This document shows, piece after piece, positions 3,786 through 42,249 of a stretch of DNA of 64,000 nucleotides (positions within the stretch are counted from its first letter, which is position 1; every line of letters begins with the position of its first letter). The position numbers and the translations under genes were made by a program. The notes below the pieces were generated by a model. The model had not been told where the DNA came from and did not search any database. It saw only the letters and a program-made list of their open reading frames with translations. The DNA comes from an uncultured Patescibacteria group bacterium (lineage in GTDB: Bacteria > Patescibacteriota > Microgenomatia > UBA1400 > PJMF01). The stretch covers positions 75,523 through 139,522 of the forward strand of contig CAJQIG010000004.1 of assembly GCA_905478415.1 (NCBI GenBank), given 5' to 3'.

Positions 3786-3845
3786 AGGTATCTGCCTCTT
3801 TCCCACTAGTCAGCAACCGCAAGTATTCTGTACACTAGAAGCACT

Positions 3846-4676
3846 ATGGAAAATCTGCCCCAAACTGAACCTGTTGTTCCACAGCCAGATCAACAACCAA
3901 TCACTCCAACACCACAACCTACCACGATAACGGCAACTCAAGAACAACAGCCACTACAATCACCGCTCACAACTACTACTCCTGTCGTAACCCCCACACC
4001 TCAAAAAACAAATAGCTTCATACTTCTCATCATTGGAATACTACTCTTACTCTTTTTGGGAGTTGGTGGCTTCCTCTTCTATAAAAACCTCACCACCCCC
4101 GAGAGCATTCCTCTCACCGGGATTGCAACTGACTATGGTTTTACGTTAGAAATTCCAGAAACTACGGAAGCTTCCCCATCAACAGTTGTGGATGAAGCAA
4201 GAGGTTGGAAAGAATATAACAACTACGAACTTGAATACTCCTTTAAACATCCTCAGCAAGAAGTAAACCTCACCACTTCATGTACTCCCTATTTCGAAAA
4301 TGGAATACAAAAAGGTGAATTTAAATATATTTTCTATGATTCATCGGCGATCACAAACAACCAAGAATTGATGGCAGTCTGTGAACCAGAATATGAAAAC
4401 AAGTACCTTAAACTCACCCATAGTAGCTCTCAACAAACATGTGCAGGATCTACTCAAAAAATCACTGTTGCAGGAGTAACAGCCACCCAATGCTCTGGTA
4501 AAACAGACTCAAACACCTCAACTGAAACCAGTGTCAGCTTGTTTATTCCTATTCAAAATAGATTTGTCATTATCGAGGTGAACTCGAAAGAGTATCTTCC
4601 AGTACTTCAAAACAGTATTGATACCTTCGCTTTTGAAACCCGAGAACCAATTTCGATTGAAGAAGAAACCCCATAA
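3846..4676 (+). CDS. Hypothetical membrane-anchored protein with Pro/Thr/Gln-rich N-terminus
   Basis: Low-complexity PT-rich N-terminus, one TM helix (FILLIIGILLLLFLGVGGFLFY), then a Cys-containing extracytoplasmic domain. Confidence 0.5.
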   Translation: MENLPQTEPVVPQPDQQPITPTPQPTTITATQEQQPLQSPLTTTTPVVTPTPQKTNSFILLIIGILLLLFLGVGGFLFYKNLTTPESIPLTGIATDYGFTLEIPETTEASPSTVVDEARGWKEYNNYELEYSFKHPQQEVNLTTSCTPYFENGIQKGEFKYIFYDSSAITNNQELMAVCEPEYENKYLKLTHSSSQQTCAGSTQKITVAGVTATQCSGKTDSNTSTETSVSLFIPIQNRFVIIEVNSKEYLPVLQNSIDTFAFETREPISIEEETP

Positions 4677-4712
4677 GGTACCTTGAGATCTCCTTTAAGC
4701 ACCATTCTTTGA

Positions 4713-5240
4713 TTAAGTACTCTCTGGTAACACTACTCGCTCATGTTCAAACGTCTCTAAATCAAGCAGCACGAAACTACTTTCTTTATCAGGCTCTTGT
4801 GGCAACCACTTATCTTTGGTAACTGTATTGCCTGGATTTATGAACAATGTCTTTCCAAACTCTTTTATACGGTACAGATGATCATGACCGCCGATACAAA
4901 GATCATACTTTTGAGCTTCTGCAACTCGTTCACTCATATCAGAAAAATGGTGCATAAATATGCTCTTGCCCTCTAAGTCTAGTAGCATGGTATCTCCATA
5001 ACATGTCATGTTTTCATAGCCATTGGCACGATTTGTCAGGCCCACTCGCTCCCCATCATTATTTCCTAAAATAAAATGAAGATGCCCTGAGTAGTGCTCG
5101 TGAAACCGATGTAAAATACCGGGATTAATTAAGTCACCAGCGTGAAGCGCAATAGAGATATTATGGGTATTGAGATACTCAATAATCCAGACAATTGCTG
5201 GTGTGTTGTCGTGAGTATCGGAGATGAGAGCGATTTTCAT
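4713..5240 (-). CDS. Metallophosphoesterase (YfcE/MJ0936-like)
   Basis: Calcineurin-like motifs: ISDTHDN, GDLIN, GNND, GGHDH. Confidence 0.8.
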   Translation of the reverse strand: MKIALISDTHDNTPAIVWIIEYLNTHNISIALHAGDLINPGILHRFHEHYSGHLHFILGNNDGERVGLTNRANGYENMTCYGDTMLLDLEGKSIFMHHFSDMSERVAEAQKYDLCIGGHDHLYRIKEFGKTLFINPGNTVTKDKWLPQEPDKESSFVLLDLETFEHERVVLPEST

Positions 5241-5255
5241 AGTGTTGTTAGTATA

Positions 5256-5753
5256 TCACTGCAACCATGCTTCAATAGACTTACGAACCGACACAGTATC
5301 AACAAACTGTTCAGCGTGCATGCCAGCCTGACGAGCAGCTGTAATGTTATGAATTGAGTCATCAATAAACATAATGTTACTTATTGGCTCACCTACTAGT
5401 GCTGAAATCTGTTTGTAAGCTGCGGGATCAGTCTTGGCAAAGCCAACAGAAGGCACCGTAAAAACTGTTTCAAAGACCTCCATCACTCGATCCTTGATTT
5501 CTGGGGCATCCTGTACCGTTCCCGTTGTAAAGATATGCTTTTGAATTCCTTCCAAAGACTGAATGTAGGACAGAAGTTCAGTATTTAGTTGATACATATC
5601 GAGAAAATTAAAACCTCTTTCTTGAATTTTTTTGTAGAGCCCATTGAGGCTCCCTTGATAACTCAGGTCTTTTGGGAACAGAATAACTTGTGAAAAATCA
5701 GAGAGAAGAACTTTCATATAGATAAGTATGTCTGAGAGAAAAAAATCTTGCAA
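5256..5753 (-). CDS. HAD-superfamily hydrolase-like protein (possibly degenerate motif I)
   Basis: C-terminal HAD motifs (K...FIDDS) are present. The N-terminal DxD is replaced by LLSDFS. Confidence 0.45.
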   Translation of the reverse strand: MQDFFLSDILIYMKVLLSDFSQVILFPKDLSYQGSLNGLYKKIQERGFNFLDMYQLNTELLSYIQSLEGIQKHIFTTGTVQDAPEIKDRVMEVFETVFTVPSVGFAKTDPAAYKQISALVGEPISNIMFIDDSIHNITAARQAGMHAEQFVDTVSVRKSIEAWLQ

Positions 5754-5810
5754 GTTGTAAAAAAATACTAACTATCAAAAAAAACAAATCACCTATACTA
5801 TACAAGGAAG

Positions 5811-7013
5811 ATGCACTATTCTCAGATAAAAACCATTGTCCTTGGCACCGAAAACCTTGAAAGATGGAGTCAACACAAAAATGATTTTTTCAATTGTCTT
5901 GCCATCCCGATTACCCACGAGCCCCTCTCATCCCAAATAGCTTCACTACAAAAGTATGTAACCCTTTGTAAGAACTTAGAATCTATTGTCGGTCTTAATG
6001 ACCGAGCAATCCTCATTATTTCACTGCTTGAAAATAACCAAATACAAGTCTTAGATGCTCAGACTGTCGTACAGTTTCAACATAAAGAGTCTTTTTTGAA
6101 ACTCCTTTCAAAACTCGCTATTCCCATTATGAACTGGCAGACAATTTCTTCTACCCAAGAGGAAACCATACAGCTTAAGTTTCCATTCTTTATTAAACCA
6201 ATCCGAGGCGCTTTTTCAGAAAAAACTGGCAAAATACATTCCCTTGTTGAGTTGAAGAATCATTTTTCAAAGTACTCGGTCAATGAGAAGATTGATCCTA
6301 CAATCAAAAAATTATTTATGTGTGAAAACACGGAACATCTCAACTCATATATTATTCAAGAATTTGTCTCAGCCCCTCAATACACTGTGGACTTTTATGT
6401 CAGATCTGGAAAAGTAATTATTGAAGCTATCACTGAAAGTTTAATAGATTCTCACTACCAAAGTTTTATTGGTTTCGAAACTCCGTCTCTCTTGCCAAAA
6501 GAATGCGTACAGGATCTTAAGAACTATATCCAGAAAATTACTACGCATCTAGCACTGCCTAATGCTTATTTTAATGTTGAATTTTTTGTTAAAGATAACC
6601 AAATTCTTATTATTGAATGGAACCCTCGGCTTTCAGCCCAATTTTTAAAAATGTTTGAGTACTCTTTAGGAAAAAACTATTTACAATCAGTACTGCACTT
6701 GGGCCAAGGAGAAGAGGTACTAAATACTAAGGAAGAAGAAACAAAAATTGCTCATATTTTCGTCCTAAGAAAAAAACGAGACCAAGTAATGCAACGAACA
6801 CTCTCAAAATCTGAAGTTGCAGTAATCGAAAAAAAATATGATCTCTTAGAACTCAAAATCACTGCTCTTCCAAATAAAAAACTCTCTGAAGTCAGACAAG
6901 ATAGCCAAAGCTTTAGATTCGGCTACGCAACTCTAGCTGGTTCATTTTTGGATAGGGCTGCTACTCATAGAGCCTTACAGACAGAACTTGAAGCTCTCTT
7001 TTTAGATAGTTAA
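5811..7013 (+). CDS. ATP-grasp domain protein (unknown ligase)
   Basis: FPFFIKPIRGAFSEKTG, IIQEFV, IIEWNPR motifs resemble ATP-grasp B/C-loop signatures. Confidence 0.5.
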   Translation: MHYSQIKTIVLGTENLERWSQHKNDFFNCLAIPITHEPLSSQIASLQKYVTLCKNLESIVGLNDRAILIISLLENNQIQVLDAQTVVQFQHKESFLKLLSKLAIPIMNWQTISSTQEETIQLKFPFFIKPIRGAFSEKTGKIHSLVELKNHFSKYSVNEKIDPTIKKLFMCENTEHLNSYIIQEFVSAPQYTVDFYVRSGKVIIEAITESLIDSHYQSFIGFETPSLLPKECVQDLKNYIQKITTHLALPNAYFNVEFFVKDNQILIIEWNPRLSAQFLKMFEYSLGKNYLQSVLHLGQGEEVLNTKEEETKIAHIFVLRKKRDQVMQRTLSKSEVAVIEKKYDLLELKITALPNKKLSEVRQDSQSFRFGYATLAGSFLDRAATHRALQTELEALFLDS

Positions 7014-7019
7014 GCGCTT

Positions 7020-7256
7020 CTACTCGACAGTATACTTAAGCCCTTCAATCACTGCCTTAAGCTTCTTAGGCTGTACCTTGGTTGGATCGTACTCAATTGT
7101 TGTCTGTGAAGCTGCGTAGCTCGTAGTGGCCTGCAATACCCCAGCTACATCCTCGAGCTCTCCATCGATACTCATACTGCAGCTGGTGCAATGCATACCA
7201 CTAATCTTAAACACAACTTTTTCTCCAACTGGTTTTTTCTTTAGAAAATTGAACAT
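7020..7256 (-). CDS. copZ: Heavy-metal-associated (HMA) copper chaperone, CopZ-like
   Basis: GMHCTSC metal-binding motif; 78 aa; first-but-last gene (3' end) of the cop operon. Confidence 0.8.
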   Translation of the reverse strand: MFNFLKKKPVGEKVVFKISGMHCTSCSMSIDGELEDVAGVLQATTSYAASQTTIEYDPTKVQPKKLKAVIEGLKYTVE

Positions 7257-7265
7257 ACCTACCTC

Positions 7266-8375
7266 CTATATAACTTCCATTGTGCCACTATACATACCCA
7301 TTGAACAAGTATAGGTATACCGTCCTGGCTTCTTTGGTATAAATGTAACGGTTTGCCTATCAGTTGACTCTAAAAACTTTGAAATACCAAACTCTTTGAA
7401 AACAAATGATAACGCGCACGAATAGACTCCATTACTTTGTAACGTTAATTGAACTGGAACTCCACTTTCAACCTTAAAATAATTGGGGCTATATCCGTTG
7501 CTCAACACATTCAGTGTCACTTGTTGCACTCCGTTTGTAACTGCAGTTGTAGTGGTATTCGAAAATCTATCACCAGAAAAAAAGTAAGTGACCGGCCTTA
7601 CAATTCGGTTAAGCGTTAGTGGTGAGTCCATGACCAATAGTACTCCATTCACACTGTATACAGCCATGCCAACGAGCACGTAGGCAGCAACTTTCATAAA
7701 GGTTTGATACCAGCCTTCACTGAGTTTTGCAGTTGCAACACCAATCAACGCAAAGAGAGGAAGCGTTCCTAATACAAACGAAAACATAATCACGGCCCCT
7801 TGAAAGGGATTACCAGAATTTATAGCTAATACTTCCATTGCTTGTGTAACTCCACACGGAATAAAAACCGTCATTAACCCCAGCACAGCTGGAGCAAATA
7901 AAGCTCTGCTCTGACTGGTATTTCGAACTAGTCGTTGCAAAAACTTTGGTGGCTGAAAAGCTACATACCTAAAAATTGGGTGTACATCTAACAGATTCAT
8001 AGCTGTAGCAAACATGAAGAGAGCAGTGAAGACCTGGAAGCCAAGTCGAACTCCCAAACTCAAAGTAATTGCCGAACCTGCTAACCCGAGTAAAAATCCA
8101 AGGACTGTATGAGCTACTAACTTTGTTGTCAAAAACATGGCCACTGGCATCCAATCAAGCGAATCAAAGGACTTCAAAGAAAAATTATTCTTTTGTAACG
8201 TCTGCAAGTAGGCAGACTTTTTCTTTTCTTTTATCTTTTTTTTGTCAGAGATAATTTCGTCACGTTCTTGGTCTTTTTGATTTGCAATCACACTGGTCAA
8301 CAAACCACCTTGCATAGCTACACACGAGAGGCCTCCAGTTGTTAAGCCCGTTAAAAAAATAAGTAAAGTATTCAT
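7266..8375 (-). CDS. DsbD_2-like polytopic membrane protein fused to a C-terminal cupredoxin-like Cys/Met-rich domain
   Basis: TM motifs GGLSC and IPCGVT in helices. The C-terminal beta-rich domain ends YTYTCSMGMYSGTMEV (cupredoxin-like). Tight spacing to copA and copZ (8-9 nt). Confidence 0.55.
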   Translation of the reverse strand: MNTLLIFLTGLTTGGLSCVAMQGGLLTSVIANQKDQERDEIISDKKKIKEKKKSAYLQTLQKNNFSLKSFDSLDWMPVAMFLTTKLVAHTVLGFLLGLAGSAITLSLGVRLGFQVFTALFMFATAMNLLDVHPIFRYVAFQPPKFLQRLVRNTSQSRALFAPAVLGLMTVFIPCGVTQAMEVLAINSGNPFQGAVIMFSFVLGTLPLFALIGVATAKLSEGWYQTFMKVAAYVLVGMAVYSVNGVLLVMDSPLTLNRIVRPVTYFFSGDRFSNTTTTAVTNGVQQVTLNVLSNGYSPNYFKVESGVPVQLTLQSNGVYSCALSFVFKEFGISKFLESTDRQTVTFIPKKPGRYTYTCSMGMYSGTMEVI

Positions 8376-8383
8376 GGTGTTGC

Positions 8384-10636
8384 TTATTCTAAATGAGTAG
8401 TTTTTAATCGTAAGGCATTCAGGACTACACTCACACTTGAGAAAGCCATGGCCGCACCTGCTAACACCGGATTCAGTACAATTCCAAAGGTGGGATAGAG
8501 AACACCCATTGCTACTGGAATGAGCACCACGTTATATCCAAAAGCCCAAAATAAGTTTTGACGAATGTTGCGCATAGTAGCCTTAGAGAGTGAGAGCGCC
8601 GTTGGCACTAAACTAATGTCACTTCTCAGAAGCGTGACCCCAGCTGACTCAATCGCCACATCAGTTCCACCTCCCATAGCAATACCAACGTCGGCAGTAG
8701 CCAATGCTGGTGCATCATTTATGCCATCACCAACCATAGCGACAACTGGATATTTTTTGCGCAACTCCCGAATAGTCTTCTCTTTTTGATCTGGAAGAAC
8801 CTCAGCAACAACCTCTGTAATGTCAACTTCTTTAGCTATGGCTAATGCAGTACTCTTATTATCTCCCGTTAACATAATGCTGGTCACACCCATCTTCTTG
8901 AGTGTTTCTATAACTGATGCAGACTTTTCTTTGACTGGATCAGCTATTCCAAAGAATGCAACCAGTTTTCCCTTTACCGCCATAAATGTGACAGTCTGTC
9001 CTTTTTCCATCAGGCCCTGAATTTCATTTGTATACTGTTCTGGAATAGAAATAGTTTGTTCTGCTAGTAACTTTTGACTGCCAATCACAATAGCTATACC
9101 GGCAACTTGAGCAGTTACCCCCTTTCCACTGATATCTTTAAATTTCTGCACTTCTAGAGATGATTTAGACGGTAGTTTCTCTTTGGCATAGAGTGCTAAA
9201 GCTGTAGCCAGTGGATGATGAGAGAGTTCCTCTACTGCATACAACTGTGCTACCGTTTCTTTTTCTGCACCTGTGACAAAAACTGCAGCTTGAACTGTCG
9301 GACTTCCTTCAGTCAATGTGCCCGTTTTATCGAAAACAACTGCGCTGACTTTGTTCGCAATTTCTAGTGCCCGAGCATCTTTGATTAACACTCCTAACTG
9401 TGCTCCTTTACCCATACCAACCATCAGGGATGTTGGTGTTGCCAAACCTAAAGCACAAGGGCAAGCAATAATTAGTACATTGATCATACTTACTAGTGCA
9501 AATAAAAACCGTGGTTCTGGACCAATGATCATCCAAACACCAAAAGTAGCTACTGCTATTACAATCACAACTGGCACAAAATAAGATGCAATCGTATCAA
9601 CGAGTGCTTGAATTGGTGGCCGAGACCCCTGAGCCTCTTTCACAGACCGAATAATAGCAGCTAGCATCGTCTCACTACCTACTTTGGTAGCTTTCATCTC
9701 AAAACTACCAGATTTGTTGAGCGTTGCACCAACAACTGCATCACCAACTTGCTTACTCACGGGCATACTTTCTCCCGTTACCATACTTTCATCAATAGAA
9801 CTTTCTCCTTTACTCACTTGCCCATCAACAGCAACTTTTTCTCCTGGCTTAACCAGTAAGGTATCTCCAACTTTGACTTGGTCTGTAGGAACTTCAACCC
9901 ACTCTCTACCTTTTTTAACTAGAGCAGTTTTGACCTGTAAATTAAGTAATTCTTTAATTGCAGAAGATGTTTGAGCTTTAGCCCGAATCTCGAGATACTT
10001 ACCAAGTAAGATAAACGTGATAATAGCTGCTGCAGCTTCAAAGTACACATGAGTCTCAATCCCAGCTTCCGTAAACTGCGCACCAAAGATTGTTACTACC
10101 ACTGAGTAAAAGTATGCCACCGAAGTTCCAAGCACCACCAAAGTATCCATATTAGCAGAAAAATTTTTCAGACCAGACCAAGCTCCCTGATAAAAACGCT
10201 TTCCAACCCAAAACTGGACAGGTGTTGCTAGAACCATCAAAACCCAAGGGTTATGTAAGAACTCAGGCACTGCTGGCACCATACTTGCTATTAGTAGCAC
10301 TGAAAGCACTCCACTCACCTGCAACTTTGACTTCAGCGATTGCAACTCCTTAGCCCGCTCGACTTCAGCAATATCTCCATCATCTTCAATATGAGCTACA
10401 TACCCCACAGAACTCACTGCAGCTACAAGTGTATCTGTAGTTACCTGGTCACTGTTGAAAGTAACGGTGGCTTGTTCGTTGGCGTAGTTGACCGCGGCTT
10501 CAGTTACTCCAGTGGTCTTACTCAATTTTCTAGAGATATTAGTAGCACAACTAGCACAGTGCATACCCGAGACATGAAAGGAAAGTGTGCTTTTATTGTC
10601 TGTTTTAGTCGACATATTTTTGGGGTTCCTTTTCAA
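8384..10636 (-). CDS. copA: Copper-translocating P1B-type ATPase
   Basis: N-terminal HMA GMHCASC, CPC in TM6, [15 protein letters not shown]. Confidence 0.93.
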
Positions 10637-32181: not shown

Positions 32182-33165
32182 CTATAAATATAAAAAGTTA
32201 AACAAATATCCAATTAAAATTATTCCCACAATCGTTATCCCAAAGAAGAGTGCTAACAACTGCCACCGCATGACCTTCTTGAGTATGAGTGCTTCAGGAA
32301 TAGAGAGTGTGACCGTTGCAGTCATAAATGCTAAAGCTGTTCCTAATGGAATTCCCTTTCCTACAAACGCTTCAACCACGGGTATCACAGAGACAGAGTT
32401 AGCATAGAGAGGTACTCCCAAAATAACTGCTGCTGGGACACTCCACCATGTTTTCATTCCCAGATACTGTTCCAGTAAGCTCTGTGGTACATAACCATGG
32501 ATGATAGCTCCTATCGCTACGCCTAAAATGACATAGGGATACACTTTTTTCGTAATTCCCCAACCATCTACCCACCATAATTTTATTTTCTCTCCTAATT
32601 TTAGCTCGTTTCCTTCATTCTCCATTAACACTTGAGAATGATTTTTGAATTTCAAAAGAGACGATTCTACATAGTTTTCCATCTTCAATTTTTCAATCAA
32701 GATGCCCCCTAAGATACTGACTCCAATACCTACCAGGTTATACACAATTGTTGTCTTCATTCCAAATAATGCTGGGAAAAGAAATAGTGAAGACTCATTC
32801 ACTAATGGTGAACTAATCAAAAAGGTGAACGTAACTCCCATTGGTATTCCAGCCGAAAGAAAACCAATAAATAATGGAATAGATGAACAAGAACAGAAAG
32901 GTGTGACCACGCCAAGCAACGCCGCCAAAAGATAGTCCATCCCGTACCAGCGTCTCTTAGTAAGGACATCTCGCACTTTTTTCATCGGAAAATAAAATCG
33001 AGTAATTGCCATTAAATAATTAATAAAAATCAAGAGAATACCAATTTTGAGTACATCGTAGATAAAGAAACTACTAGCATTTCCTAAGTAACTATCTTGA
33101 GCTATGTTCAACCATAGATACGTAACTTTATCGGCAAAGGTTTGTAGAGGACTAAATATGTCCAT
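32182..33165 (-). CDS. arsP: ArsP/YraQ-family permease (putative organoarsenical or metalloid efflux)
   Basis: VVTPFCSCSSIPLF matches the ArsP TPFCSCS motif; 8-10 TM helices. Confidence 0.7.
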   Translation of the reverse strand: MDIFSPLQTFADKVTYLWLNIAQDSYLGNASSFFIYDVLKIGILLIFINYLMAITRFYFPMKKVRDVLTKRRWYGMDYLLAALLGVVTPFCSCSSIPLFIGFLSAGIPMGVTFTFLISSPLVNESSLFLFPALFGMKTTIVYNLVGIGVSILGGILIEKLKMENYVESSLLKFKNHSQVLMENEGNELKLGEKIKLWWVDGWGITKKVYPYVILGVAIGAIIHGYVPQSLLEQYLGMKTWWSVPAAVILGVPLYANSVSVIPVVEAFVGKGIPLGTALAFMTATVTLSIPEALILKKVMRWQLLALFFGITIVGIILIGYLFNFLYL

Positions 33166-33400
33166 AGATTTTTTCCTTGACCTTATCTTTATTCGAATTG
33201 AAACCGACCATAACGACTTTTCCGTCGACTACTAAAACTGGACTGCTCATTGCACCGGTTTTTAAAATTTCCTGGATACCTTTGTCACCGGTTATATACT
33301 CAACAACGTCAGTTTCATTCACTTCTGCGACAATTGTTTTTACCAGTTCATGTAATTTTTGACAAGTCTGACACCCGGAACCTAAAACTTTTATTTTCAT
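33152..33400 (-). CDS. Thioredoxin-fold redox-active disulfide protein (Thioredoxin_3-like)
   Basis: GSGCQTC motif; 82 aa; overlaps the arsP start. Confidence 0.7.
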   Translation of the reverse strand: MKIKVLGSGCQTCQKLHELVKTIVAEVNETDVVEYITGDKGIQEILKTGAMSSPVLVVDGKVVMVGFNSNKDKVKEKIYGHI

Positions 33401-33412
33401 ATCACATTCCTT

Positions 33413-33733
33413 CTACATACTAAATACCAACTCAACTATCCTTACTCCTTTTGGAGTCAAGCTGTAATAAACCTGCAAGCCTGTTTTTTTTCCTACAATT
33501 AGTTTAGCTTTTCGTAAATCAGCTAAGTGGTGAGATAACAAACTTTGAGATAACTGGACATGTTCAGAAAACTCACACACACAGTGAGTGCCTTGTCTAA
33601 GAATACAAAGAATTTTTAGTCTACTTGGCTCAGCAACTAATTTGAGAAGTGTAGACAAACTATCAATACGACTAAACTCTGTATCACTTGGCTGGCAACA
33701 ACTATATGAATGCATATTCATATAGTACATCAA
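33413..33733 (-). CDS. arsR: ArsR-family repressor with CVC metalloid-binding motif
   Basis: HTH plus HCVCEF, matching the ArsR As(III) site ELCVCDL. Confidence 0.8.
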   Translation of the reverse strand: MMYYMNMHSYSCCQPSDTEFSRIDSLSTLLKLVAEPSRLKILCILRQGTHCVCEFSEHVQLSQSLLSHHLADLRKAKLIVGKKTGLQVYYSLTPKGVRIVELVFSM

Positions 33734-33846
33734 AAAAATATAAATGCCAATGTGAAGTGGAAGGTTTATTAGAAATTACTAAAGCTGATACAAACAATTT
33801 TAGAGAGTTGTTTTCACACATCGTTACAAACAAAACCCAACTAAAA

Positions 33847-34044
33847 TTAAGATTCGTACTCTTTTGTTGCACCGTTCTCTAGTGCTCTTTCAGCATTAGC
33901 TTTAGACATCATTGCACAAACAGTTGTTCCACACTTCTCGTGCTTCCCTTTGGCCATGAAACCACCTTTTTTAGTTTTGTGAATCCCTGGTGCTGACAAT
34001 TCAACGCCTTTTTCCTTACATTTAACGCAGTATCCTGTGACCAT
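33847..34044 (-). CDS. DUF5679-family small zinc-ribbon protein
   Basis: CVKCKEK...KCGTTVCAM Cys pattern typical of DUF5679. Confidence 0.55.
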   Translation of the reverse strand: MVTGYCVKCKEKGVELSAPGIHKTKKGGFMAKGKHEKCGTTVCAMMSKANAERALENGATKEYES

Positions 34045-34223
34045 GTCGATCTCCCTTTAAATTATATCTTGTTGCATTATAACGCCATTTTATGTTGATT
34101 CATACCTTAAAGGTAAAAGCAGGCAAACCTAGAGGTTGTTTTTCCTAGCAAACTTAGAATTTCGTGTCAGAAAAAAATAAATAAAGTTGAGGCTCGCTGT
34201 CGTGGATGAAGTTAGGAACTGTT

Positions 34224-34427
34224 TTATTTAGCTTCTTCTATCTGTTTAGGTGGACATTTACTATCTGCATAAGAACAAAAAACACAACAATCACCTTTTT
34301 TAGGAGTCATTGTCTTTTCACATTTCTCACACTTGAAAAAGTGCTGACAAGCATCTGTCGGCATTTCAGAAATTTGATCATGACCACAAAAGGGGCAAGT
34401 TATTGTAGCAGTTGTTTTTATTTCCAT
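34224..34427 (-). CDS. Cys-rich small zinc-ribbon protein (10 Cys in 67 aa)
   Basis: CPFCGH...CQHFFKCEKCEK...GDCCVFCSY...CPP. Confidence 0.4.
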   Translation of the reverse strand: MEIKTTATITCPFCGHDQISEMPTDACQHFFKCEKCEKTMTPKKGDCCVFCSYADSKCPPKQIEEAK

Positions 34428-34570
34428 GCTTCCATCATAGCAGGTTCGAGCCTCCTATTCGGGTTATAAAAAATACTCGAGGAAAAACCTCGTGCTCCCC
34501 GCTCTTGAAGAAGTTAGGAACGGATTACTTTTAACAAACTACATGCCACCACAATCTCTGTAAGCCCTAT

Positions 34571-35002
34571 CTAGTTCACTTTTCTAACCTTCACCAAGTC
34601 ATCAACACCCTCAACAGAAATCTGCCTACCATTAACACCATCAATTACCATCGCATTTGGTAAATGTGCGTATCGGTACTTGTATTTGCCCTCAGTCTGC
34701 TCCCAAACTTGACCATTCTGAAACTGAAACTTCATTCCATGATTAAAACCTTCAAATTTTGAGGTAATTCTGCCCTCAGTCACTATTTGAATTTGTTGCA
34801 CCTCTACCGTGTCATTCATTCCTTCAATACTGATAACATAACTACCAGTAGAATTAGGTTTAATGACCACAGCAGGTCGATAAGCATAATGGTAGTTATA
34901 CTTATACACACTCTGCTGCCAAACTTGTCCATTATCTAGTTTAAAGACGGATTCACCATCAAACCCATGGAACTCACCTTCTATGTGACTATGTATTGTC
35001 AT
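34571..35002 (-). CDS. Hypothetical protein with two tandem ~67-aa beta-rich repeats (possible di-Ubl/beta-grasp)
   Basis: Internal duplication: GEFHGFDGESVFKLDNGQVWQQSVYKYNYHYAYRP... vs SKFEGFNHGMKFQFQNGQVWEQTEGKYKYRYAHLP... Last gene of the cassette operon. Confidence 0.5.
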   Translation of the reverse strand: MTIHSHIEGEFHGFDGESVFKLDNGQVWQQSVYKYNYHYAYRPAVVIKPNSTGSYVISIEGMNDTVEVQQIQIVTEGRITSKFEGFNHGMKFQFQNGQVWEQTEGKYKYRYAHLPNAMVIDGVNGRQISVEGVDDLVKVRKVN

Positions 35003-35351
35003 AATTTTCCTCCAATTCTCTGTACCATACTATTCTACCGCTATTTAACCAAAAGTGGCTTTTACATCCCTTTAGTCTCCATATTGAAGGAGATAGCGAA
35101 GGTCGTTTCTTTTTTACTGTCATCTCCCAACGAGGATGCACATCTTCTTGACAATTTAAATAGATTTTTGCTCCACAACCACAAGGGCACTTGAGAATGA
35201 AATACCATTGATAGCCATTTTCGCCGACCACATATAAGACCTTGTCCTTTACTGACTTTGGATTAAAACTCTGCACTGAAACAATTTTAAAGTATTCATC
35301 AAACCCAATTTTATTTCTAAGCCAACGGACAAAAGTATTTACTATTTTCAT
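34989..35351 (-). CDS. Zinc-binding Cys/His cluster protein (possible treble-clef/RING-like), 120 aa
   Basis: LKCPCGCGAKIYLNCQEDVHPRW...KGCKSHFW; 4-nt overlap with the JAB-E1 gene. Confidence 0.45.
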   Translation of the reverse strand: MKIVNTFVRWLRNKIGFDEYFKIVSVQSFNPKSVKDKVLYVVGENGYQWYFILKCPCGCGAKIYLNCQEDVHPRWEMTVKKKRPSLSPSIWRLKGCKSHFWLNSGRIVWYRELEENYDNT

Positions 35352-36745
35352 AGTGATGGGTATCCCAGTACTACTTTCTGGTCACCTAGACCAATCTTTT
35401 TCACTAAACTAGTATCTATTCCTCTTGATTTGATTGGCTCAATATAACTATCCAAAAGACTCATCCTCAAGCTCACAATTTCAGTATCTAAACCAAATCT
35501 AAGACCATGTAGTCTATTAAGTAACTCTAGTATTCCAAAGCTAGCAGCGAATGAGTTAGGAGTAATAACTGCAGGAACTTCTTCTGGTAGTCCAGGTAAG
35601 TAACCCTCATCAAGCTGCTTTCTGTATTCTTCTCTGTTGGAGGCTTTCATAGATGCAGCAGCTAATTGTGATGAATTAAAAATCCCCCGTTTATGAAGTG
35701 ACTCACCTGGTAAAATATAGTCTGCTCTTGCTGATACATGCTCAACCCCTCCATTACCATCAATCAAAATTTTCACTCCTACATCTATTATTGGAATTAG
35801 ATAGTATGTCCCCATGCGGTTGATAACCTGCCTTGCATATACATCATCAACACAGCTAAATAAAACATCGCACCCTTTCAAAAAATCAACTGCAGCTCGG
35901 CTTGCGATACTTTCTTGCATTACATTAACAGTTGTTCCTAAACCAAGTTCATTTGCATATCTAACAAATACATCTACCTTTGACGACTTATTTTTGACAT
36001 CTCCTGTTGTCGCCCCAACAATTCTATTAAGATTTTTTGCTTCAACTATGTCTGGGTCAATCAAGGTAAGAGACTGAACTCCATAATGAAGCAGCTGTTG
36101 GATAACTAAACTTCCTGTACCAGAACAACCAATTACTCCAACACGAAGCTTTTTTAGTTTTGATAAGGTTTCTGACCCAAAAACCTGATGTGACCTTTTT
36201 TCATGCTCAGCTAATTCACCGATATTTTTTATTTTGGGCGATATTCTGTCCCCAACCATAAGAACGTCATCCACATCTTCAAATTTTTCTTGATTGAAAA
36301 CTCTTGCTTTTATTACACCATCTGGCAAAAGTATTGCACTCATGAATGAATTCTCTCTTCCTAGCCAAGAATGGACAGTATTTGCTAGCGACTTATCAGA
36401 GATATCATCTGCATTCGAGAATGTCTCAATGCCCGAGGGGTGACTATGAATCTTAAGTATTCCATAGGAACCATCAATGTATTCACTCAATTTTTCTGCC
36501 AGAAGAGCCGTCTTCCAAGTTATATGAGATTTAGAACGACTCTTAATTTCTTCTAAATTAAAAGGGACTATCTCGTGAACCAAAAAAATAATTTCACCTT
36601 TACTTTCTGCAACTCCACATACAACAATAGCCACCGATTCCTTTGAGTCCCCAGGGTAAAGATAACCTTTTATTTCTGTTAGCTGCGGTTCTGTAATTCT
36701 CAGCCTAATCGATTTTTTCATGCTAATGTCTCTTTTTCCAACCAA
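35348..36745 (-). CDS. JAB/JAMM deubiquitinase-like domain fused to E1-like (ThiF/MoeB) adenylyltransferase domain
   Basis: N-terminal JAMM motif E...HSHPSGIETFSNADD (HxHx7Sx2D). C-terminal Rossmann VGVIGCSGTGS...LIDPDIVEAKNLNR typical of E1/ThiF. Confidence 0.8.
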   Translation of the reverse strand: MVGKRDISMKKSIRLRITEPQLTEIKGYLYPGDSKESVAIVVCGVAESKGEIIFLVHEIVPFNLEEIKSRSKSHITWKTALLAEKLSEYIDGSYGILKIHSHPSGIETFSNADDISDKSLANTVHSWLGRENSFMSAILLPDGVIKARVFNQEKFEDVDDVLMVGDRISPKIKNIGELAEHEKRSHQVFGSETLSKLKKLRVGVIGCSGTGSLVIQQLLHYGVQSLTLIDPDIVEAKNLNRIVGATTGDVKNKSSKVDVFVRYANELGLGTTVNVMQESIASRAAVDFLKGCDVLFSCVDDVYARQVINRMGTYYLIPIIDVGVKILIDGNGGVEHVSARADYILPGESLHKRGIFNSSQLAAASMKASNREEYRKQLDEGYLPGLPEEVPAVITPNSFAASFGILELLNRLHGLRFGLDTEIVSLRMSLLDSYIEPIKSRGIDTSLVKKIGLGDQKVVLGYPSL

Positions 36746-37440
36746 GTAGTAACCTGGAGAATGTGTGTGCCAACCCCATCTACATCAGACCTCCATTCAT
36801 CAGCGCTTTTTCTATGTCTTGACCACCTTTGGAAAGATTGACCCTTAATTTGTTGTTCTGATATTTTTTCTACAGTTTTTTTTGAATTTAGAGTTAAATG
36901 TGGGTGAAAGTATGCCATATCAATCTGCACATCTGGATATGCTGGAGGAATCATCAATGCTAAAGTTGCTCTCTTTTGGTCATATCCATGCGGAACTTCA
37001 AAGTCATAGAGAAGGAGCCAGTTACTGGCTCCTTCCTTTATTGCTTCCCATTTTTTGAAAGATTTAGTGAGATGGCTTTTGTCATCTTCAGGTAAATCAA
37101 AATCATTCCCATCACCCTCTGTTTGGTCAAGTGGCATTGTTATGAATCGTTCTACACCAGGTCGTGTTAAGTTGATTATTTCGTCATAATCAATGCGTTG
37201 AACTTGTCCTCCATGTAGTTTTTGACTAATCATAAACTGCTCCACGGGTGTTTTACCTGCAAGCTCGAGCAACGAACGACCTGATATGGTTTCTGTATTA
37301 ACCACGAAATGCTGGCGGTCGATGAGAATTTTATATCTACGTCCTTTCGGAATAGGCTTTTTAGACCTTGCATGAGCTTGGAGGTCAATTACCTCAGCTT
37401 TACTAGCTTCTACTGTTTTGTTGGGGGTGTCATTAGACAT
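36718..37440 (-). CDS. Ubiquitin-like (multiubiquitin-type beta-grasp) domain fused to an E2/UEV-like domain that has no cysteine
   Basis: N-terminal YKILIDRQHFVVNTETISGRSLLELAGK...IDYDEIINL beta-grasp pattern. C-terminal LALMIPPAYPDVQIDMAYFHPHL resembles the UBC fold up to the HPN-like motif, but there is no Cys anywhere in the protein. Confidence 0.55.
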   Translation of the reverse strand: MSNDTPNKTVEASKAEVIDLQAHARSKKPIPKGRRYKILIDRQHFVVNTETISGRSLLELAGKTPVEQFMISQKLHGGQVQRIDYDEIINLTRPGVERFITMPLDQTEGDGNDFDLPEDDKSHLTKSFKKWEAIKEGASNWLLLYDFEVPHGYDQKRATLALMIPPAYPDVQIDMAYFHPHLTLNSKKTVEKISEQQIKGQSFQRWSRHRKSADEWRSDVDGVGTHILQVTTWLEKETLA

Positions 37441-37533
37441 ATCCCTCCTTTATCGCCTGTCCAAAGCAATACTTTATATAAACAGGGTTTTCAATAGAAA
37501 CTGTATGCTATACAATGAAAGTGTAACGTCACT

Positions 37534-37607
37534 GCAACAGTTGTTTCATTCCAACCCTGTGTGAGTTGGACTAAAAACTAGTTATACACCAACGAAACAG
37601 CTGTTGC
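37534..37607. promoter_or_regulatory. Pair of near-palindromic 14-bp sites GCAACAGTTGTTTC / GAAACAGCTGTTGC in the divergent promoter region; candidate XRE-repressor operators
   Basis: Two inverted copies (13/14 identical) at 37534-37547 and 37594-37607, between the Ubl operon and the XRE gene. Confidence 0.4.
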
Positions 37608-37639
37608 AAGTGTTAAACACTTAGGATATACTAACTACT

Positions 37640-38002
37640 ATGAGCAAACTTACAATTCAACGTATTGGCATCGAGATAAAAAACAAAAGAGGCACCAAAG
37701 GATTAAGAGAAACAGCTAAAATAATCGGAGTAAGTGCTGCAACACTTTCAAGAATTGAATCTGGAAAACAACCCGATTTAGATACATTTGTCAAAATCTG
37801 TAAGTGGCTCGAAATCAACCCCTCAGAAATACTTTCTTTTGAAGAAACTCAGCCCTTTTCCTCAGACGACGTTAACAACAATAGTTTCACATCAGCACAT
37901 TTAAGAGCAAATAGAGAACTCTCTCCTGAAACCGCTAGTCATTTAACACAGGCTATACTTTCCATGCGTGAATTCCTCTCTATGAACGATGATGTTTCAT
38001 AA
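37640..38002 (+). CDS. XRE-family helix-turn-helix transcriptional regulator (CapH/ImmR-like)
   Basis: LRETAKIIGVSAATLSRIESGKQ HTH_3 motif. Confidence 0.75.
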   Translation: MSKLTIQRIGIEIKNKRGTKGLRETAKIIGVSAATLSRIESGKQPDLDTFVKICKWLEINPSEILSFEETQPFSSDDVNNNSFTSAHLRANRELSPETASHLTQAILSMREFLSMNDDVS

Positions 38003-38010
38003 GGGGTGTC

Positions 38011-38577
38011 ATGTCAAACTTCAAACTTAACCCAGGATTCAAGAGATGGTGCGAGAAAGCTGCAACTGCTTTTCGAAGTGAATTTGGTCTCCTGGCAACT
38101 GCTGCTCTTCCATCAGAAAAAATGGCTGAATATCTGAATGTTCAGGTTGTTGAATTTTCTGAGTTGAGAATCCCTGCTGAATCTAAGACATATTTGCTGA
38201 CACAAGGTTCCAAAGAATGGTCTGCAGCAACTGTATCTAGCTCAAAAAAAACAGTTATTTTAATCAATGAAAGTCATACTGAGGAAAGAAAAAACAATAG
38301 CCTTATGCATGAGCTCTCTCATATTATTTTGAAGCACGAGCCATCAAAGTTTACCAACCTACTCGAAGCTGGTATTTCCTTTCGCACATACGATGAAAAG
38401 CTTGAAAAAGAAGCTGATTGGCTCGCCGCAACACTACTTCTTCCCAAAGATGTTTTAGAAACTATTGGAGCAATAGTTTCTAAGGCTGATATAGAGAGAA
38501 AACACACCGTAAGTCCAGAGCTTCTTAGATTTAGGTTGAATCTAACTGGAATTGGTAAGAAAATTAAAAATCAATAA
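38011..38577 (+). CDS. ImmA/IrrE-family zinc metallopeptidase (CapP-like)
   Basis: SLMHELSHIILKHE HExxH motif; located immediately downstream of the XRE gene. Confidence 0.7.
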   Translation: MSNFKLNPGFKRWCEKAATAFRSEFGLLATAALPSEKMAEYLNVQVVEFSELRIPAESKTYLLTQGSKEWSAATVSSSKKTVILINESHTEERKNNSLMHELSHIILKHEPSKFTNLLEAGISFRTYDEKLEKEADWLAATLLLPKDVLETIGAIVSKADIERKHTVSPELLRFRLNLTGIGKKIKNQ

Positions 38578-38582
38578 AAGAA

Positions 38583-39035
38583 CTAACCCAAAGTAACATA
38601 GAAAAATGTTCTTTTTATTATCAGGTGACATGCAGATACCAAGAACGATGATATTGTTGAAAAAAGTATAAAAGCTATGATATCAGTTTCGTAAAAAATT
38701 TCTGCATTATGCTCATTGCAACTTATATAGCTCACCACCTGCCCCTCTTCATATCCTTGACTTCTTAAACTCTTAAATTCCTGTACCTTGGCTGGAGAAA
38801 TGCCCTGAGGAAGAATTACCTCATCTTTCTTCCCAAACCCTTTAAATTCATATTCTGGTTTAGACAAATAAGTTGAGCAGTCTTTATATCCATCCGTTGG
38901 TTTCTGAGACATCGAATAGCTAACACCAAACCCCACCAAGACAGTAAAAATAAGACCAAAAGTGTAAATTACTTTTATCAACCTTGTAAAGGGATTTTTC
39001 TCAAGTATATTTTGGTTTTGTTCGTTTTTTTTCAT
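38583..39035 (-). CDS. Hypothetical membrane protein
   Basis: N-terminal and C-terminal TM helices; no recognisable motif. Confidence 0.4.
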   Translation of the reverse strand: MKKNEQNQNILEKNPFTRLIKVIYTFGLIFTVLVGFGVSYSMSQKPTDGYKDCSTYLSKPEYEFKGFGKKDEVILPQGISPAKVQEFKSLRSQGYEEGQVVSYISCNEHNAEIFYETDIIAFILFSTISSFLVSACHLIIKRTFFYVTLG

Positions 39036-39096
39036 ATTTTCTTTGGCATGTACGCCAAAGACATTTTATCTCAACTTTGGCATAAAGACCATATAC

Positions 39097-39327
39097 ATGT
39101 TGAATAAAAATCAAATTGATTTAATCAAACAAACATTTGGTGAAGTAGTAAAAGAACTCAGAGACCAACACAACTTATCTCAAGAAAAACTTGGATTCGC
39201 TGCCGACCTCGACTTAACATCAATCAATGAAATTGAAAAAGGTCACAGAAACCCAAAGCTAACTACAGTATGCAAGCTTGCAAAAGCACTTGGAGTTAGC
39301 CCTTCTGCCTTATTAAAAAACCTTTAG
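39097..39327 (+). CDS. XRE-family HTH regulator (small)
   Basis: LRDQHNLSQEKLGFAADLDLTSINEIEKGHRNPKLTTVCKLAKALGV; start taken at MLNK. Confidence 0.6.
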   Translation: MLNKNQIDLIKQTFGEVVKELRDQHNLSQEKLGFAADLDLTSINEIEKGHRNPKLTTVCKLAKALGVSPSALLKNL

Positions 39328-40608: not shown

Positions 40609-42216
40609 ATGAAACGTGTTTTTATGTACTGCAGAAAATCAAGTGAAGATAAGGGTAAACAGATACTCTCAATAGACGACCAAAAACGTGAATTATGGCG
40701 AATTGCTAAAAACCTAAACTTAAAAGTAATTGATGAGCCAATCGAAGAAGTAAAGTCAGCTAAAGCACCAGGAAGACCAAAGTTTAGTGAGTTGGTAAAA
40801 AAAATCTATAATAATGAAGCTGATGGTATTTTATGTTGGAAACTAGACCGACTTGCTAGAAATCCCATTGATGGTGGCAACATCATTTGGATTGTAAAAG
40901 ACCAAGGAAAGGTTATTTACACACCTTCTCAAACCTTCTCCCATCAGTCAGAAAATACTATCATGATGTACATCGAGTTTGGTATGGCACAAAAATACAT
41001 TGATGATTTAGGAAAAAGCGCAAAAAGAGGCATGAAAACAAAAGCTGAGATGGGGTGGTATCCTGCTCATGCTCCACTTGGTTATGAAAATACACCTGGT
41101 GAAAAGAAAGGTTCAAGAAAAATAATAAGTGATAATAATTTCAAGCTAGTTCAACGGTGTTTTTACGAAATTCTCAAAGGCAAACAAGCTTCACATGTTT
41201 GGAGAAAAGCTAGAGAAAAATGGGGGTTAAAGTCAAAAAAAGGGAATCCCGTTGCTCACTCTACTTTTTACAACATATTAACTCACCCCTTTTACTATGG
41301 TGAATATGAGTGGCCTCGTGGTAGTGGAAATTGGTACCAGGGAAAGCATGAGCCAATGATTACCAAAGAGCAATTTGATGTTGTGCAAAAAATGTTAGGA
41401 AAAAATGGAAAGCCAATCTCTAGGAGTCATACTTTTGATTTAACTGGACTCTTTAGATGTTCAATCTGTAGCTGCGCAATTACTGCCACAAAAAAAACTA
41501 AACACTATAAAACTACAGGAAGAATTGCAGAATACACCTATTATCACTGTTCCAAGAAAAATCAAAATATCAAGTGTTCACAACCCCCTGTCAGTGAAAA
41601 AGACTTCGAGAACGAAATTATGAAGCAACTAATGATGCTCAGACCTCCAGAGGAGTTTGTGACTTGGGCGAAAAAATGGATTAAAACTGTACATGACTAC
41701 GAATCTCAAACAGAAGAAGAAATACTTGCATCTCAAAATAAAGAGCTTGAATCAGTCGAAAATCAGCTGAGCAATTTACTTGATTTGCGTATCAGAAGTG
41801 ATATTGACGACTCAACATATAGGAGCAAAAAAACACTCCTTGAACAGGAAAAATTGACTGTTAAAAGAAAGATTAACGAATCAGGAAACAACCTTTCATC
41901 TCTTAGAATTAGAGTAGAGAACGCTATCGACATAGCCTATGGCTCACATCTAAGGTTTAAGACTGGAAAACGTGAGACAAAACAAGAGATTCTAGTGAGC
42001 CTTGGCTCGAACCTCATCTTAAATCATAAAAAAATACGGATAGACCTGTTAAAACACTTTGAAGTCTTTAGAGATAATGAAAAATGGGAAGATACATATG
42101 AAGATTGGCTCGAACCTCAAAAATACATGGAACTATTCGAAAAAAGACCTGATTTGCGACCTGCAAATCCAGTATGGCTCCCCCGGGAGGATTCGAACCT
42201 CCAACCTACCGGTTAA
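40609..42216 (+). CDS. Large serine recombinase (resolvase/invertase N-domain + recombinase domain + zinc ribbon). The 3' end of the ORF reads into tRNA-Asn, so the true stop may be earlier.
   Basis: YCRKSSEDKGKQ...SIDDQ (catalytic Ser); recombinase-domain and CxxC...C zinc-ribbon region; 535 aa. Confidence 0.8.
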   Translation: MKRVFMYCRKSSEDKGKQILSIDDQKRELWRIAKNLNLKVIDEPIEEVKSAKAPGRPKFSELVKKIYNNEADGILCWKLDRLARNPIDGGNIIWIVKDQGKVIYTPSQTFSHQSENTIMMYIEFGMAQKYIDDLGKSAKRGMKTKAEMGWYPAHAPLGYENTPGEKKGSRKIISDNNFKLVQRCFYEILKGKQASHVWRKAREKWGLKSKKGNPVAHSTFYNILTHPFYYGEYEWPRGSGNWYQGKHEPMITKEQFDVVQKMLGKNGKPISRSHTFDLTGLFRCSICSCAITATKKTKHYKTTGRIAEYTYYHCSKKNQNIKCSQPPVSEKDFENEIMKQLMMLRPPEEFVTWAKKWIKTVHDYESQTEEEILASQNKELESVENQLSNLLDLRIRSDIDDSTYRSKKTLLEQEKLTVKRKINESGNNLSSLRIRVENAIDIAYGSHLRFKTGKRETKQEILVSLGSNLILNHKKIRIDLLKHFEVFRDNEKWEDTYEDWLEPQKYMELFEKRPDLRPANPVWLPREDSNLQPTG

Positions 42217-42249
42217 CAGCCGGGCGCTCTGCCATTGAGCTACAGGGGA
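42175..42249 (-). tRNA. tRNA-Asn (anticodon GTT), CCA encoded
   Basis: Hand-folded cloverleaf: acceptor UCCCCUG/CGGGGGA, D-stem GCUC/GAGC, anticodon loop CUGUUAA, T-arm GGAGGUUCGAAUCCUCC, discriminator G plus CCA. Close to E. coli tRNA-Asn. Confidence 0.85.

Follow-up and report, generated by a model that had tools for sequence, protein, structure and literature searches.

The DNA analyzed here, a 64-kb stretch (hereafter the window) of contig CAJQIG010000004.1 from an uncultured Patescibacteria group bacterium, contains two adjacent genes, one for a helix-turn-helix (HTH) protein of the XRE type and one for a zinc metallopeptidase of the M78 family, which are transcribed divergently from an operon encoding ubiquitin-like (Ubl) and associated proteins. 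The two genes and their shared intergenic region (37441-38577) were analyzed together with the divergent minus-strand operon (34571-37440). The pair is likely to be an XRE-repressor and M78-peptidase switch of the class formed by DdrO/IrrE, ImmR/ImmA, and CapH/CapP, joined in modular fashion to a Type I Bub operon. As its peptidase lacks the GAF domain that CapP and IrrE use for single-stranded DNA (ssDNA), sensing of DNA damage cannot be assumed.

We propose that the HTH protein, of 120 amino acids (aa), would dimerize through a carboxyl-terminal helix and bind two 14-bp dyads in the 199-bp spacer between the divergent genes. The proximal dyad lies over the -35 element of the pair's own putative promoter, where binding would result in autoregulation. 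The distal dyad lies toward bubAB, the first gene of the operon, and would serve to repress the bub genes; we infer this direction of regulation by analogy, from all members of the class studied so far. Once a signal is received, the 188-aa peptidase would cut the repressor within a carboxyl-terminal motif, at or near L88|R89. This would remove the dimerization helix, so that the DNA would be released and bubAB, bubCD, bubE, and a fourth gene would be induced.

The pair and the operon it faces

An earlier annotation, made from the sequence alone (the original prediction), had placed an HTH gene and an HExxH peptidase gene here, reading away from a ubiquitin-like cassette across a shared region of about 200 bp. 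This layout was recovered in full (Table 1). The open reading frame (ORF) of the HTH gene carries the predicted LRETAKIIGVSAATLSRIESG, and its product matches Pfam HTH_26 (E 1.7e-8) as well as HTH_3; no earlier start is possible than its ATG, from which homologues also align. The peptidase ORF carries the predicted MHELSHIIL, and its membership of Peptidase_M78 was confirmed by a Pfam match with an E-value of 1.1e-16, scoring 61 bits against a cutoff of 22. Both genes lie on the plus strand, and the intergenic region measures 199 bp. Opposite to them, the minus-strand operon encodes proteins with Multi_ubiq and Prok-E2_E, JAB and ThiF, and DUF6527 domains (Pfam), and the predicted cassette is therefore indeed ubiquitin-like.

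By its gene architecture we assign the operon to Type I Bub (6E.1/DUF6527), which is defined by a BubAB Ubl-E2 fusion, a BubCD JAB-E1 fusion, and a BubE DUF6527 protease in one operon (PMC11601596). The first gene, bubAB, is preceded by AGGAGG 8 nt upstream of its ATG. In the translated bubE, C55xC57xC59, S89, C96, and H99 are spaced exactly like the residues that form the zinc finger and Ser-His dyad in Citrobacter BubE (PMC11601596). All four genes overlap or abut, and the operon starts 199 bp from the HTH gene. Besides the three-gene architecture, the locus shares with the described Type I Bub operons a nearby tRNA gene and recombinase (Chambers, Ye et al. 2024, PMC11601596). It differs from them in the extra fourth gene, which is translationally coupled to bubE and falls outside the three-gene definition, and in a JAB domain that scores under the Pfam gathering threshold. 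The product of the fourth gene (143 aa) had no match in Pfam, NCBIfam, or PADLOC.

The closest relatives of the pair were found in a locus we call L008, in which the HTH protein is 58% and the peptidase 49% identical to those of the window, and in which bubE-bubCD-bubAB is divergent from HTH-M78. A single-unit, 79-aa homologue of the fourth gene product is encoded at the same position in L008. Pairing of this type is already published: a CapH+CapP pair was reported on 168 of 544 Bub operons (31%; Chambers, Ye et al. 2024, PMC11601596), and CapH/CapP-like pairs on 6e systems were noted before (Lau et al. 2022, bioRxiv 10.1101/2022.04.27.489752). In this respect, the locus adds one example.

The peptidase belongs to a subfamily without a GAF domain

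The catalytic residues of the peptidase are intact, as H100-E101-x-x-H104, E132/E134, and R93 are invariant in 15 relatives in the family alignment. Its AlphaFold2 (AF2) model is confident, with a predicted local distance difference test score (pLDDT) of 90.5. When this model was searched with Foldseek, the top match was Thauera CapP (7T5T, E 1.3e-5), followed by IrrE and PprI. A family profile searched against the PDB likewise found 7T5T as its top match (E 5.6e-5), covering residues 76-172 of 291 of CapP, and the best PADLOC model was capP (E 1.4e-13), with coverage limited to profile positions 31-118 of 242. The profile matches to CapP all end with the peptidase domain. What follows in the model of the window protein are four short helices at 146-187, after which the protein ends; the Foldseek alignment to 7T5T spans 198 columns (query-normalized TM-score, TMq, 0.52) and gives no residue-level mapping of these helices to the central HTH-like domain of CapP.

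Neither the profile nor the PDB alignments placed a GAF domain in the protein, which terminates at residue 188. A cysteine-switch loop was not found either, there being no Cys between H104 and E132 in the window protein and 14 relatives; this loop occurs in only 33% of CapP proteins and is not strictly defining. A word-indexed search found few close relatives (16, all of 149-201 aa), while an exhaustive profile search retrieved 454 representatives of 50%-identity clusters at an E-value of 1e-30 or better. The best 150 of these 454 are all 140-244 aa long and match from end to end. The peptidase belongs to a large subfamily that lacks both GAF domain and cysteine switch and has a repressor family of its own, which is a modest new point beyond the literature.

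This build bears directly on the strongest alternative, namely that the switch responds specifically to DNA damage, with ssDNA binding the peptidase and licensing cleavage as in CapH/CapP. CapP and IrrE consist of three domains (peptidase, HTH-like linker, and GAF), and ssDNA, which activates them, occupies a groove between peptidase and GAF domain, with the GAF residues Y264 and W280 contributing to binding (PMC13228613). The closest solved relatives of the window peptidase are CapP and then IrrE/PprI, and its invariant R93 aligns with CapP R90 and IrrE R85, a residue that contacts ssDNA. Moreover, the helical carboxyl-terminal region at 146-187 may match the central domain of CapP, against which ssDNA packs. 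However, because there is no GAF domain, be it in the window protein, in the end-to-end matches of its best 150 representatives, or within reach of the partial capP profile match, the published groove is incomplete here. The cysteine-switch loop is missing as well. In addition, the 169-aa ImmA of Bacillus subtilis, which also lacks a GAF domain, did not cleave its repressor ImmR any better when ssDNA was supplied in vitro (De Groot and colleagues, PMC12828697). We therefore dropped the label "damage-responsive" given in the original prediction, and consider an ssDNA-specific switch possible but rather doubtful.

The repressor carries a conserved carboxyl-terminal motif

In the AF2 model of the HTH protein (mean pLDDT 75), residues 6-64 form a five-helix XRE HTH domain, followed by a disordered linker at approximately 65-82 (residues 68-81 with pLDDT below 50), an extended conserved segment, and a single confident helix at 96-116. 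The HTH domain itself is generic: in the Foldseek search, the amino-terminal domain of CapH (7T5U) was found at a target-normalized TM-score (TMt) of 0.66, ranking 35th among XRE domains. In the window repressor, the extended segment and the start of the helix read A86-H87-L88-R89-A90...P95-E96-T97-A98...L102, and an alignment of 46 sequences defined the family motif A-H-[L/F]-R-A-[D/E/N]-[R/K]-x-[L/I/M]-x-P-E-T-A-x-x-L, in which R89 and L102 are invariant and H87 and A90 are conserved at 90% or more.

Within this motif, the dipeptide [L/F]88-R89 is invariant or near-invariant across the 46 homologues and resembles mapped cleavage sites in the class. DdrO is cleaved at L106|R107, the same type of dipeptide, and CapH at F82|R83, likewise a hydrophobic residue followed by Arg. 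The most likely cut is predicted between L88 and R89, encoded by codons 37901-37906. The first carboxyl-terminal helix of CapH is predicted to unwrap in the monomer (Calloji et al. 2026, PMC13228613); the AF2 model made here is a monomer as well.

The pair is a module that travels with conflict-type operons

A genome scan, with one genome per species, identified 53 loci with relatives of the peptidase in at least eight phyla. At 47 of these, a cognate HTH gene lies on the same strand and ends at most 200 nt upstream of the peptidase gene, and its product resembles the window HTH protein including the carboxyl-terminal region. To call the cargo of each locus, neighboring genes were clustered and the cluster representatives were annotated with Pfam. 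Bub or Multi_ubiq operons were found at 15 of the 53 loci: eight with Type II-like Bub cargo (Multi_ubiq, DUF6791-ThiF, and DUF6527), six with Multi_ubiq, a 140-aa protein, and ThiF but without BubE, and one with Type I Bub; L008/L009 and L064, identified in other ways, extend this last group. Other E1/E2/JAB cargo was present at a minimum of nine loci, bringing Bub and other E1/JAB cargo together to at least 24. Another 12 loci carried operons of the cyclic oligonucleotide-based antiphage signaling system (CBASS), with a CD-NTase and either a SAVED or a Cap15 effector. At the remaining loci, the cargo was unclassified or lay at a contig edge.

The same picture was obtained when starting from the repressor. 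Each of the four nearest HTH relatives (50-53% identical) is followed by an M78 gene encoding 196-208 aa. Three of these pairs face a Type II Bub operon, a split Type I Bub operon, and a CBASS operon, respectively, and the fourth is co-directional with a set of SMC-like, HATPase, and TCAD9 genes; these loci add two Bub operons and one CBASS operon beyond the 53. The claim in the original prediction that such pairs control CBASS and other defense operons is in line with these data, in so far as this same subfamily of HTH+M78 pairs adjoins operons of both kinds, CBASS and Bub, across dozens of genomes. The RefSeq plasmid pACMV5 of Acidiphilium carries a multiubiquitin-E2-ThiF operon divergent from an HTH-ImmA/IrrE pair, and full-length relatives of the peptidase were found on 42 plasmids. 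A phage collection, by comparison, gave one marginal match in 50,697 records. Given the cargo of the 53 loci and the plasmid and phage data, the pair travels with conflict-type operons and not with excision functions of phages or of integrative and conjugative elements.

These data also speak to a second alternative, in which the pair would be the immunity switch of an integrative element, in the style of ImmR/ImmA of ICEBs1, and would control excision by the serine recombinase encoded at 40609-42216 instead of the Bub genes. The peptidase does have the stand-alone build of ImmA, the recombinase gene abuts a tRNA-Asn gene 2 kb downstream of the pair, and Bub operons are often found on mobile elements (PMC11601596). 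Yet in its relatives the pair stays divergent from the cargo operon whatever the flanks, and a serine-recombinase homologue is nearby in only one of the 53 genome loci. A recombinase is missing from L064, a related lineage (ArsP 68% identical) in which both the pair and the Bub module are present. Together with the near absence from phage records, and with candidate operators that lie between the pair and bubAB and not near the recombinase gene, this makes an excision switch quite improbable.

In L007 (Logan SRR20820731, 363-5053), a 37%-identical peptidase and its HTH partner adjoin genes whose domains (HMUDK_hel, MazG_C, and Nmad2) belong to nucleotide-modification conflict systems, which gives this regulator subfamily another cargo type that is neither Ubl nor CBASS. 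L064 (JGI 3300044712, 3297-9419), compared with window positions 32182-38577, comes from the related lineage mentioned above, with ArsP, HTH_5, and thioredoxin-like proteins that are 68%, 58%, and 53% identical, respectively. Its Bub module has Ubl and E2 as separate genes and adjoins the same HTH_5-Thioredoxin_3-ArsP cluster, without a recombinase and on the opposite side, so that the Bub module has been moved or inverted relative to that cluster.

Candidate operators and promoter in the shared spacer

The original prediction had pointed out two inverted 14-bp near-palindromes in the spacer, and both were found where it placed them: GCAACAGTTGTTTC at 37534-37547 and GAAACAGCTGTTGC at 37594-37607. 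The two sites are complementary to each other at 13 of 14 positions, in inverted orientation, and a repeat finder extended them to 18-nt arms (37533-37550 and 37591-37608) that are 89% complementary. An inverted match of 13 of 14 was not reached in the spacer in any of 500 dinucleotide-preserving shuffles, the maximum being 12. A degenerate pattern, GMAACAGYTGTTKC, occurs at these two sites only in the 64-kb window; as it was built from both sites, it is informative only for its absence elsewhere. Each 14-mer is itself near-palindromic, with the form G[A/C]AAC-N4-GTT[T/G]C and a self-complementarity of 5/7 for the first and 6/7 for the second site.

Both sites have counterparts in the L008 spacer, which aligns in conserved blocks with that of the window: a distal GCAACAGCGGTTTC at -100 from the ATG and a proximal GAAACTGCTGTTGC at -44. 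The four sites together give GCAACAG-NN-GTTTC, that is, 5-bp half-sites around a 4-bp spacer whose center is free. Such a dyad is the pattern expected for a dimeric HTH protein, and we regard the sites as candidate operators at which, we infer, the repressor would bind. A degenerate third half-site, TAAAC, is present at 37614-37618, and reads GAAAC in L008 and L064. In a test of four related spacers, the half-site was enriched in L064 (4 copies against 0.7 expected, P 0.007) and L063 (5 against 0.8, P 0.001), neither of which had been used in deriving it; it was absent from the spacer of the CBASS-linked L065.

The proximal site ends in the -35 hexamer of a promoter-like element, TTGCAA-17-TATACT, upstream of the HTH gene. 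By itself, the consensus promoter scan was not significant (5 sites against 3.7 expected), but the element is kept as TTGCAA-16-TATAAT in L008 and as TTGCAA-17-TATCAT in L064, and the proximal site extends into TTGCAA in L008 just as it does in the window. The -10 element ends 7 nt before the ATG in the window and 6 nt before it in L008, and neither has a Shine-Dalgarno sequence. For these reasons the HTH-M78 mRNA is probably leaderless and, judging from the overlap, probably autoregulated at its -35. The proposal that the palindromes are operators is thereby supported: position and sequence are retained next to an HTH protein that is 58% identical, and the proximal site overlaps a conserved -35.

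Other elements of the spacer were noted as well. Between the distal operator and bubAB, a block of the form GTATGC(T/G)ATACAATGA is conserved between the window and L008 (in the window, GTATGCTATACAATGAA). It includes a plus-strand -10-like TACAAT, scored as TTTTCA-17-TACAAT in the scan, and may represent a distal promoter that reads through both operators, or a part of the bub promoter. Between the dyads lies a small inverted repeat, CCAAC-N9-GTTGG (37551-37569), while L008 has a different one, AGAGC-GCT-GCTCT, at about 3334-3346.

Comparison with known repressor-peptidase pairs

The pair resembles CapH+CapP of the CBASS operons of E. coli MS115-1 and Thauera sp. K11 (Lau et al. 2022; Calloji et al. 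2026, PMC13228613). The gene order, HTH then M78, is the same; both pairs are divergent from a defense-type operon with which they share a promoter region; both repressors combine an amino-terminal XRE HTH domain with a short carboxyl-terminal region; and the HExxH M78 domain is common to both peptidases, CapP being the closest solved structure and the closest PADLOC model. They differ in that CapP has approximately 290 aa and a GAF domain, against 188 aa without GAF domain or cysteine-switch loop here. Furthermore, CapH ends in a two-helix V, where the AF2 model of the window repressor has one confident helix, and the CapH locus has one 22-bp site upstream of the -35, compared with two dyad operators 60 bp apart in the window.

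In the build of its peptidase, the pair is closer to ImmR+ImmA of the Bacillus subtilis element ICEBs1 and phage phi105, a likeness drawn from the published description and not from direct sequence comparison. There, too, a stand-alone, GAF-less M78 peptidase of 169 aa is encoded beside an XRE repressor, which it cleaves in the carboxyl-terminal part (PMC12828697). However, ImmR is cut at F95|M96, and the two proteins control genes for excision and transfer of mobile elements, whereas the cargo here is a Bub operon; relatives of the window pair have Bub, E1/JAB, or CBASS operons as cargo and are all but missing from phage genomes. In Deinococcus, finally, IrrE/PprI is an M78 peptidase that cuts the XRE repressor DdrO at L106|R107, removing its dimerization region. 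IrrE differs in having HTH-like and GAF-like domains and in binding ssDNA (PMC13228613, PMC12828697); the irrE and ddrO genes are neither adjacent nor arranged divergently to one cargo operon, and the target of DdrO is a regulon. The view that the window pair works like CapH/CapP is partly supported by these comparisons, with a GAF-less sister architecture that is closer to ImmA in build.

Weighing the proposed switch

Several points count against the proposed switch. To begin with, the whole analysis is computational. The label "CapH/CapP-like" stands for the peptidase, whose best structural and profile matches are to CapP, but was not extended by sequence comparison to its partner: the PADLOC capH model had no match to the HTH protein at an E-value of 0.01 or better, and the profile of its carboxyl-terminal region found nothing relevant in the PDB and no similarity to the carboxyl-terminal domain of CapH, a two-helix dimerization and tetramerization domain at residues 67-107. 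Homology to CapH beyond the generic HTH fold is therefore not established. The operator sequence is kept only among the closest relatives, since the window motif was found in none of 48 more distant loci that were searched; as many of these have their own significant inverted-repeat pair at about -80 and -25 from the HTH start, it is the architecture that is general, not the operator sequence.

Neither consensus scan nor manual inspection detected a sigma-70-like minus-strand site for bubAB, and the distal site can thus not be placed relative to a bub promoter. Two candidates from manual inspection, GTTACA-16-TACAGT and TTGCAA-17-TATAAC, were rejected, being conserved in neither L008 nor L064. 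The center-to-center distance of the operators is 60 bp in the window and 56 bp in L008, so that no helical phasing is conserved, and looping mediated by a tetramer was not adopted for this reason. A second XRE gene at 39043-39327, 1 kb away, could in principle use the same sites; it was rejected as the true regulator because the first HTH gene is the partner of the peptidase in 47 of 53 genomes.

It also weighs against protein-binding sites that the inverted repeat, if transcribed, could fold. RNA folding predicts an 18-bp stem, with z-scores of -2.8 for the plus and -3.7 for the minus strand, and the repeat might be an RNA or DNA hairpin placed between the divergent units to work as attenuator, terminator, or insulator. 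In both the window and L008, the one mismatch between the arms could pair as G-U on the plus strand, and the promoter-like TTTTCA-17-TACAAT upstream would drive transcription through the repeat. But each arm is a dyad in its own right, which a dimeric HTH protein requires and a long-range stem does not, and the proximal arm coincides with the conserved -35 hexamer. The half-sites of L064 are direct and not inverted, the stem is not followed by a T-run, and the scan predicted no terminator. A hairpin function is, in our judgment, very improbable, and binding of a dimeric repressor better explains the repeat.

Finally, it is highly improbable that the pair is a self-contained XRE and COG2856 toxin-antitoxin or addiction module placed beside the Bub genes by chance: the best NCBIfam match of the peptidase, "spr1629 family repressor/antitoxin," scores far under its cutoff (30.6 vs 335 bits), this and the PADLOC RmrA models (an HTH-M78 fusion) that also match cover only the generic peptidase or HTH core, and, although 7T5T was named "CapP toxin" by its PDB depositors, the divergent linkage to Bub, E1/JAB, or CBASS operons recurs across at least eight phyla, with paired operators in the shared promoter region.

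Features and flanking genes

Table 1. Position of the operon, the gene pair, and the elements of the spacer between them, numbered from the first base of the window.
Feature	Position	Strand	Description
Fourth operon gene	34571-35002	-	143 aa; internal tandem duplication of a unit of ~70 aa; 14-nt overlap with bubE
bubE	34989-35351	-	DUF6527 serine protease; Pfam DUF6527 E 4.7e-23
bubCD	35348-36745	-	JAB-peptidase and E1 fusion; ThiF E 8.9e-30; Prok-JAB E 2.5e-4, under gathering score
bubAB	36718-37440	-	Ubiquitin-like and E2-like fusion; Pfam Multi_ubiq E 1.2e-13, Prok-E2_E E 8.8e-34
Shared divergent control region	37441-37639		199 bp between bubAB and HTH gene; conserved blocks with L008 spacer
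Conserved block GTATGCTATACAATGAA	37502-37518		17 bp, between distal operator and bubAB
Distal candidate operator GCAACAGTTGTTTC	37534-37547		Half-sites GCAAC and GTTTC, 4-bp spacer
Proximal candidate operator GAAACAGCTGTTGC	37594-37607		Last four bases overlap -35 hexamer of putative HTH-gene promoter
Promoter-like element for HTH-M78 operon	37604-37632	+	TTGCAA-17-TATACT; consensus scan and conservation
CapH-like repressor gene (putative)	37640-38002	+	120 aa; XRE HTH; Pfam HTH_3 E 5.4e-9
CapP/ImmA-like M78 zinc metallopeptidase gene	38011-38577	+	188 aa; 8 nt downstream of HTH gene; Pfam Peptidase_M78

Directly after the peptidase gene, a minus-strand gene (38583-39035) encodes a 150-aa protein without family match. 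Divergent from it is the second XRE gene mentioned above, on the plus strand, which encodes 94 aa and has its best PADLOC matches to "Control_protein" models of restriction-modification systems (E 3.5e-18) and to capH (E 3.2e-9); no restriction-modification genes were found near it. L008/L009 have the same pair of genes, for a protein of 157 aa and an HTH protein of 89 aa, after the peptidase gene.

Further downstream, the large serine recombinase has 535 aa, and Resolvase, Recombinase, and Zn_ribbon_recom domains were annotated in the identical locus L001. The 3' end of its gene overlaps tRNA-Asn(GTT), encoded on the minus strand at 42175-42249, an arrangement that suggests a small integrative element inserted at the 3' end of the tRNA gene. 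No relevant att-type direct repeats of 12 nt or longer were found for the tRNA-Asn region, although a serine integrase needs no long repeats. The sequence of the locus is also present in marine SOLA22 metagenome assemblies.

Implications for the regulation of Bub and CBASS operons

The biological role of Bub (6E/DUF6527) operons is still unknown, and learning how their expression is switched on offers one of the few ways to approach it. The locus described here offers a clean example, with candidate operators, a probably leaderless and autoregulated promoter, and a predicted cleavage site all mapped to the base.

The peptidase subfamily found on this operon, and on many CBASS and E1/JAB operons, does not have the GAF domain of current models of damage sensing. 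The shorthand in which a CapH+CapP pair is taken to be responsive to DNA damage may therefore fail for a considerable fraction of these operons; for the GAF-less subfamily, the damage label is an assumption and not a result. Tentatively, peptidases of approximately 190 aa without GAF domain or cysteine switch (at least 454 clusters at 50% identity), together with repressors carrying the A-H-[L/F]-R-A...P-E-T-A motif, might form a distinct class of conflict-operon regulators that answers to a signal other than free ssDNA. If so, candidates for that signal would include RecA filaments, a phage protein, and a metabolite, and look-alike modules would connect Bub and CBASS operons to two or more types of input.

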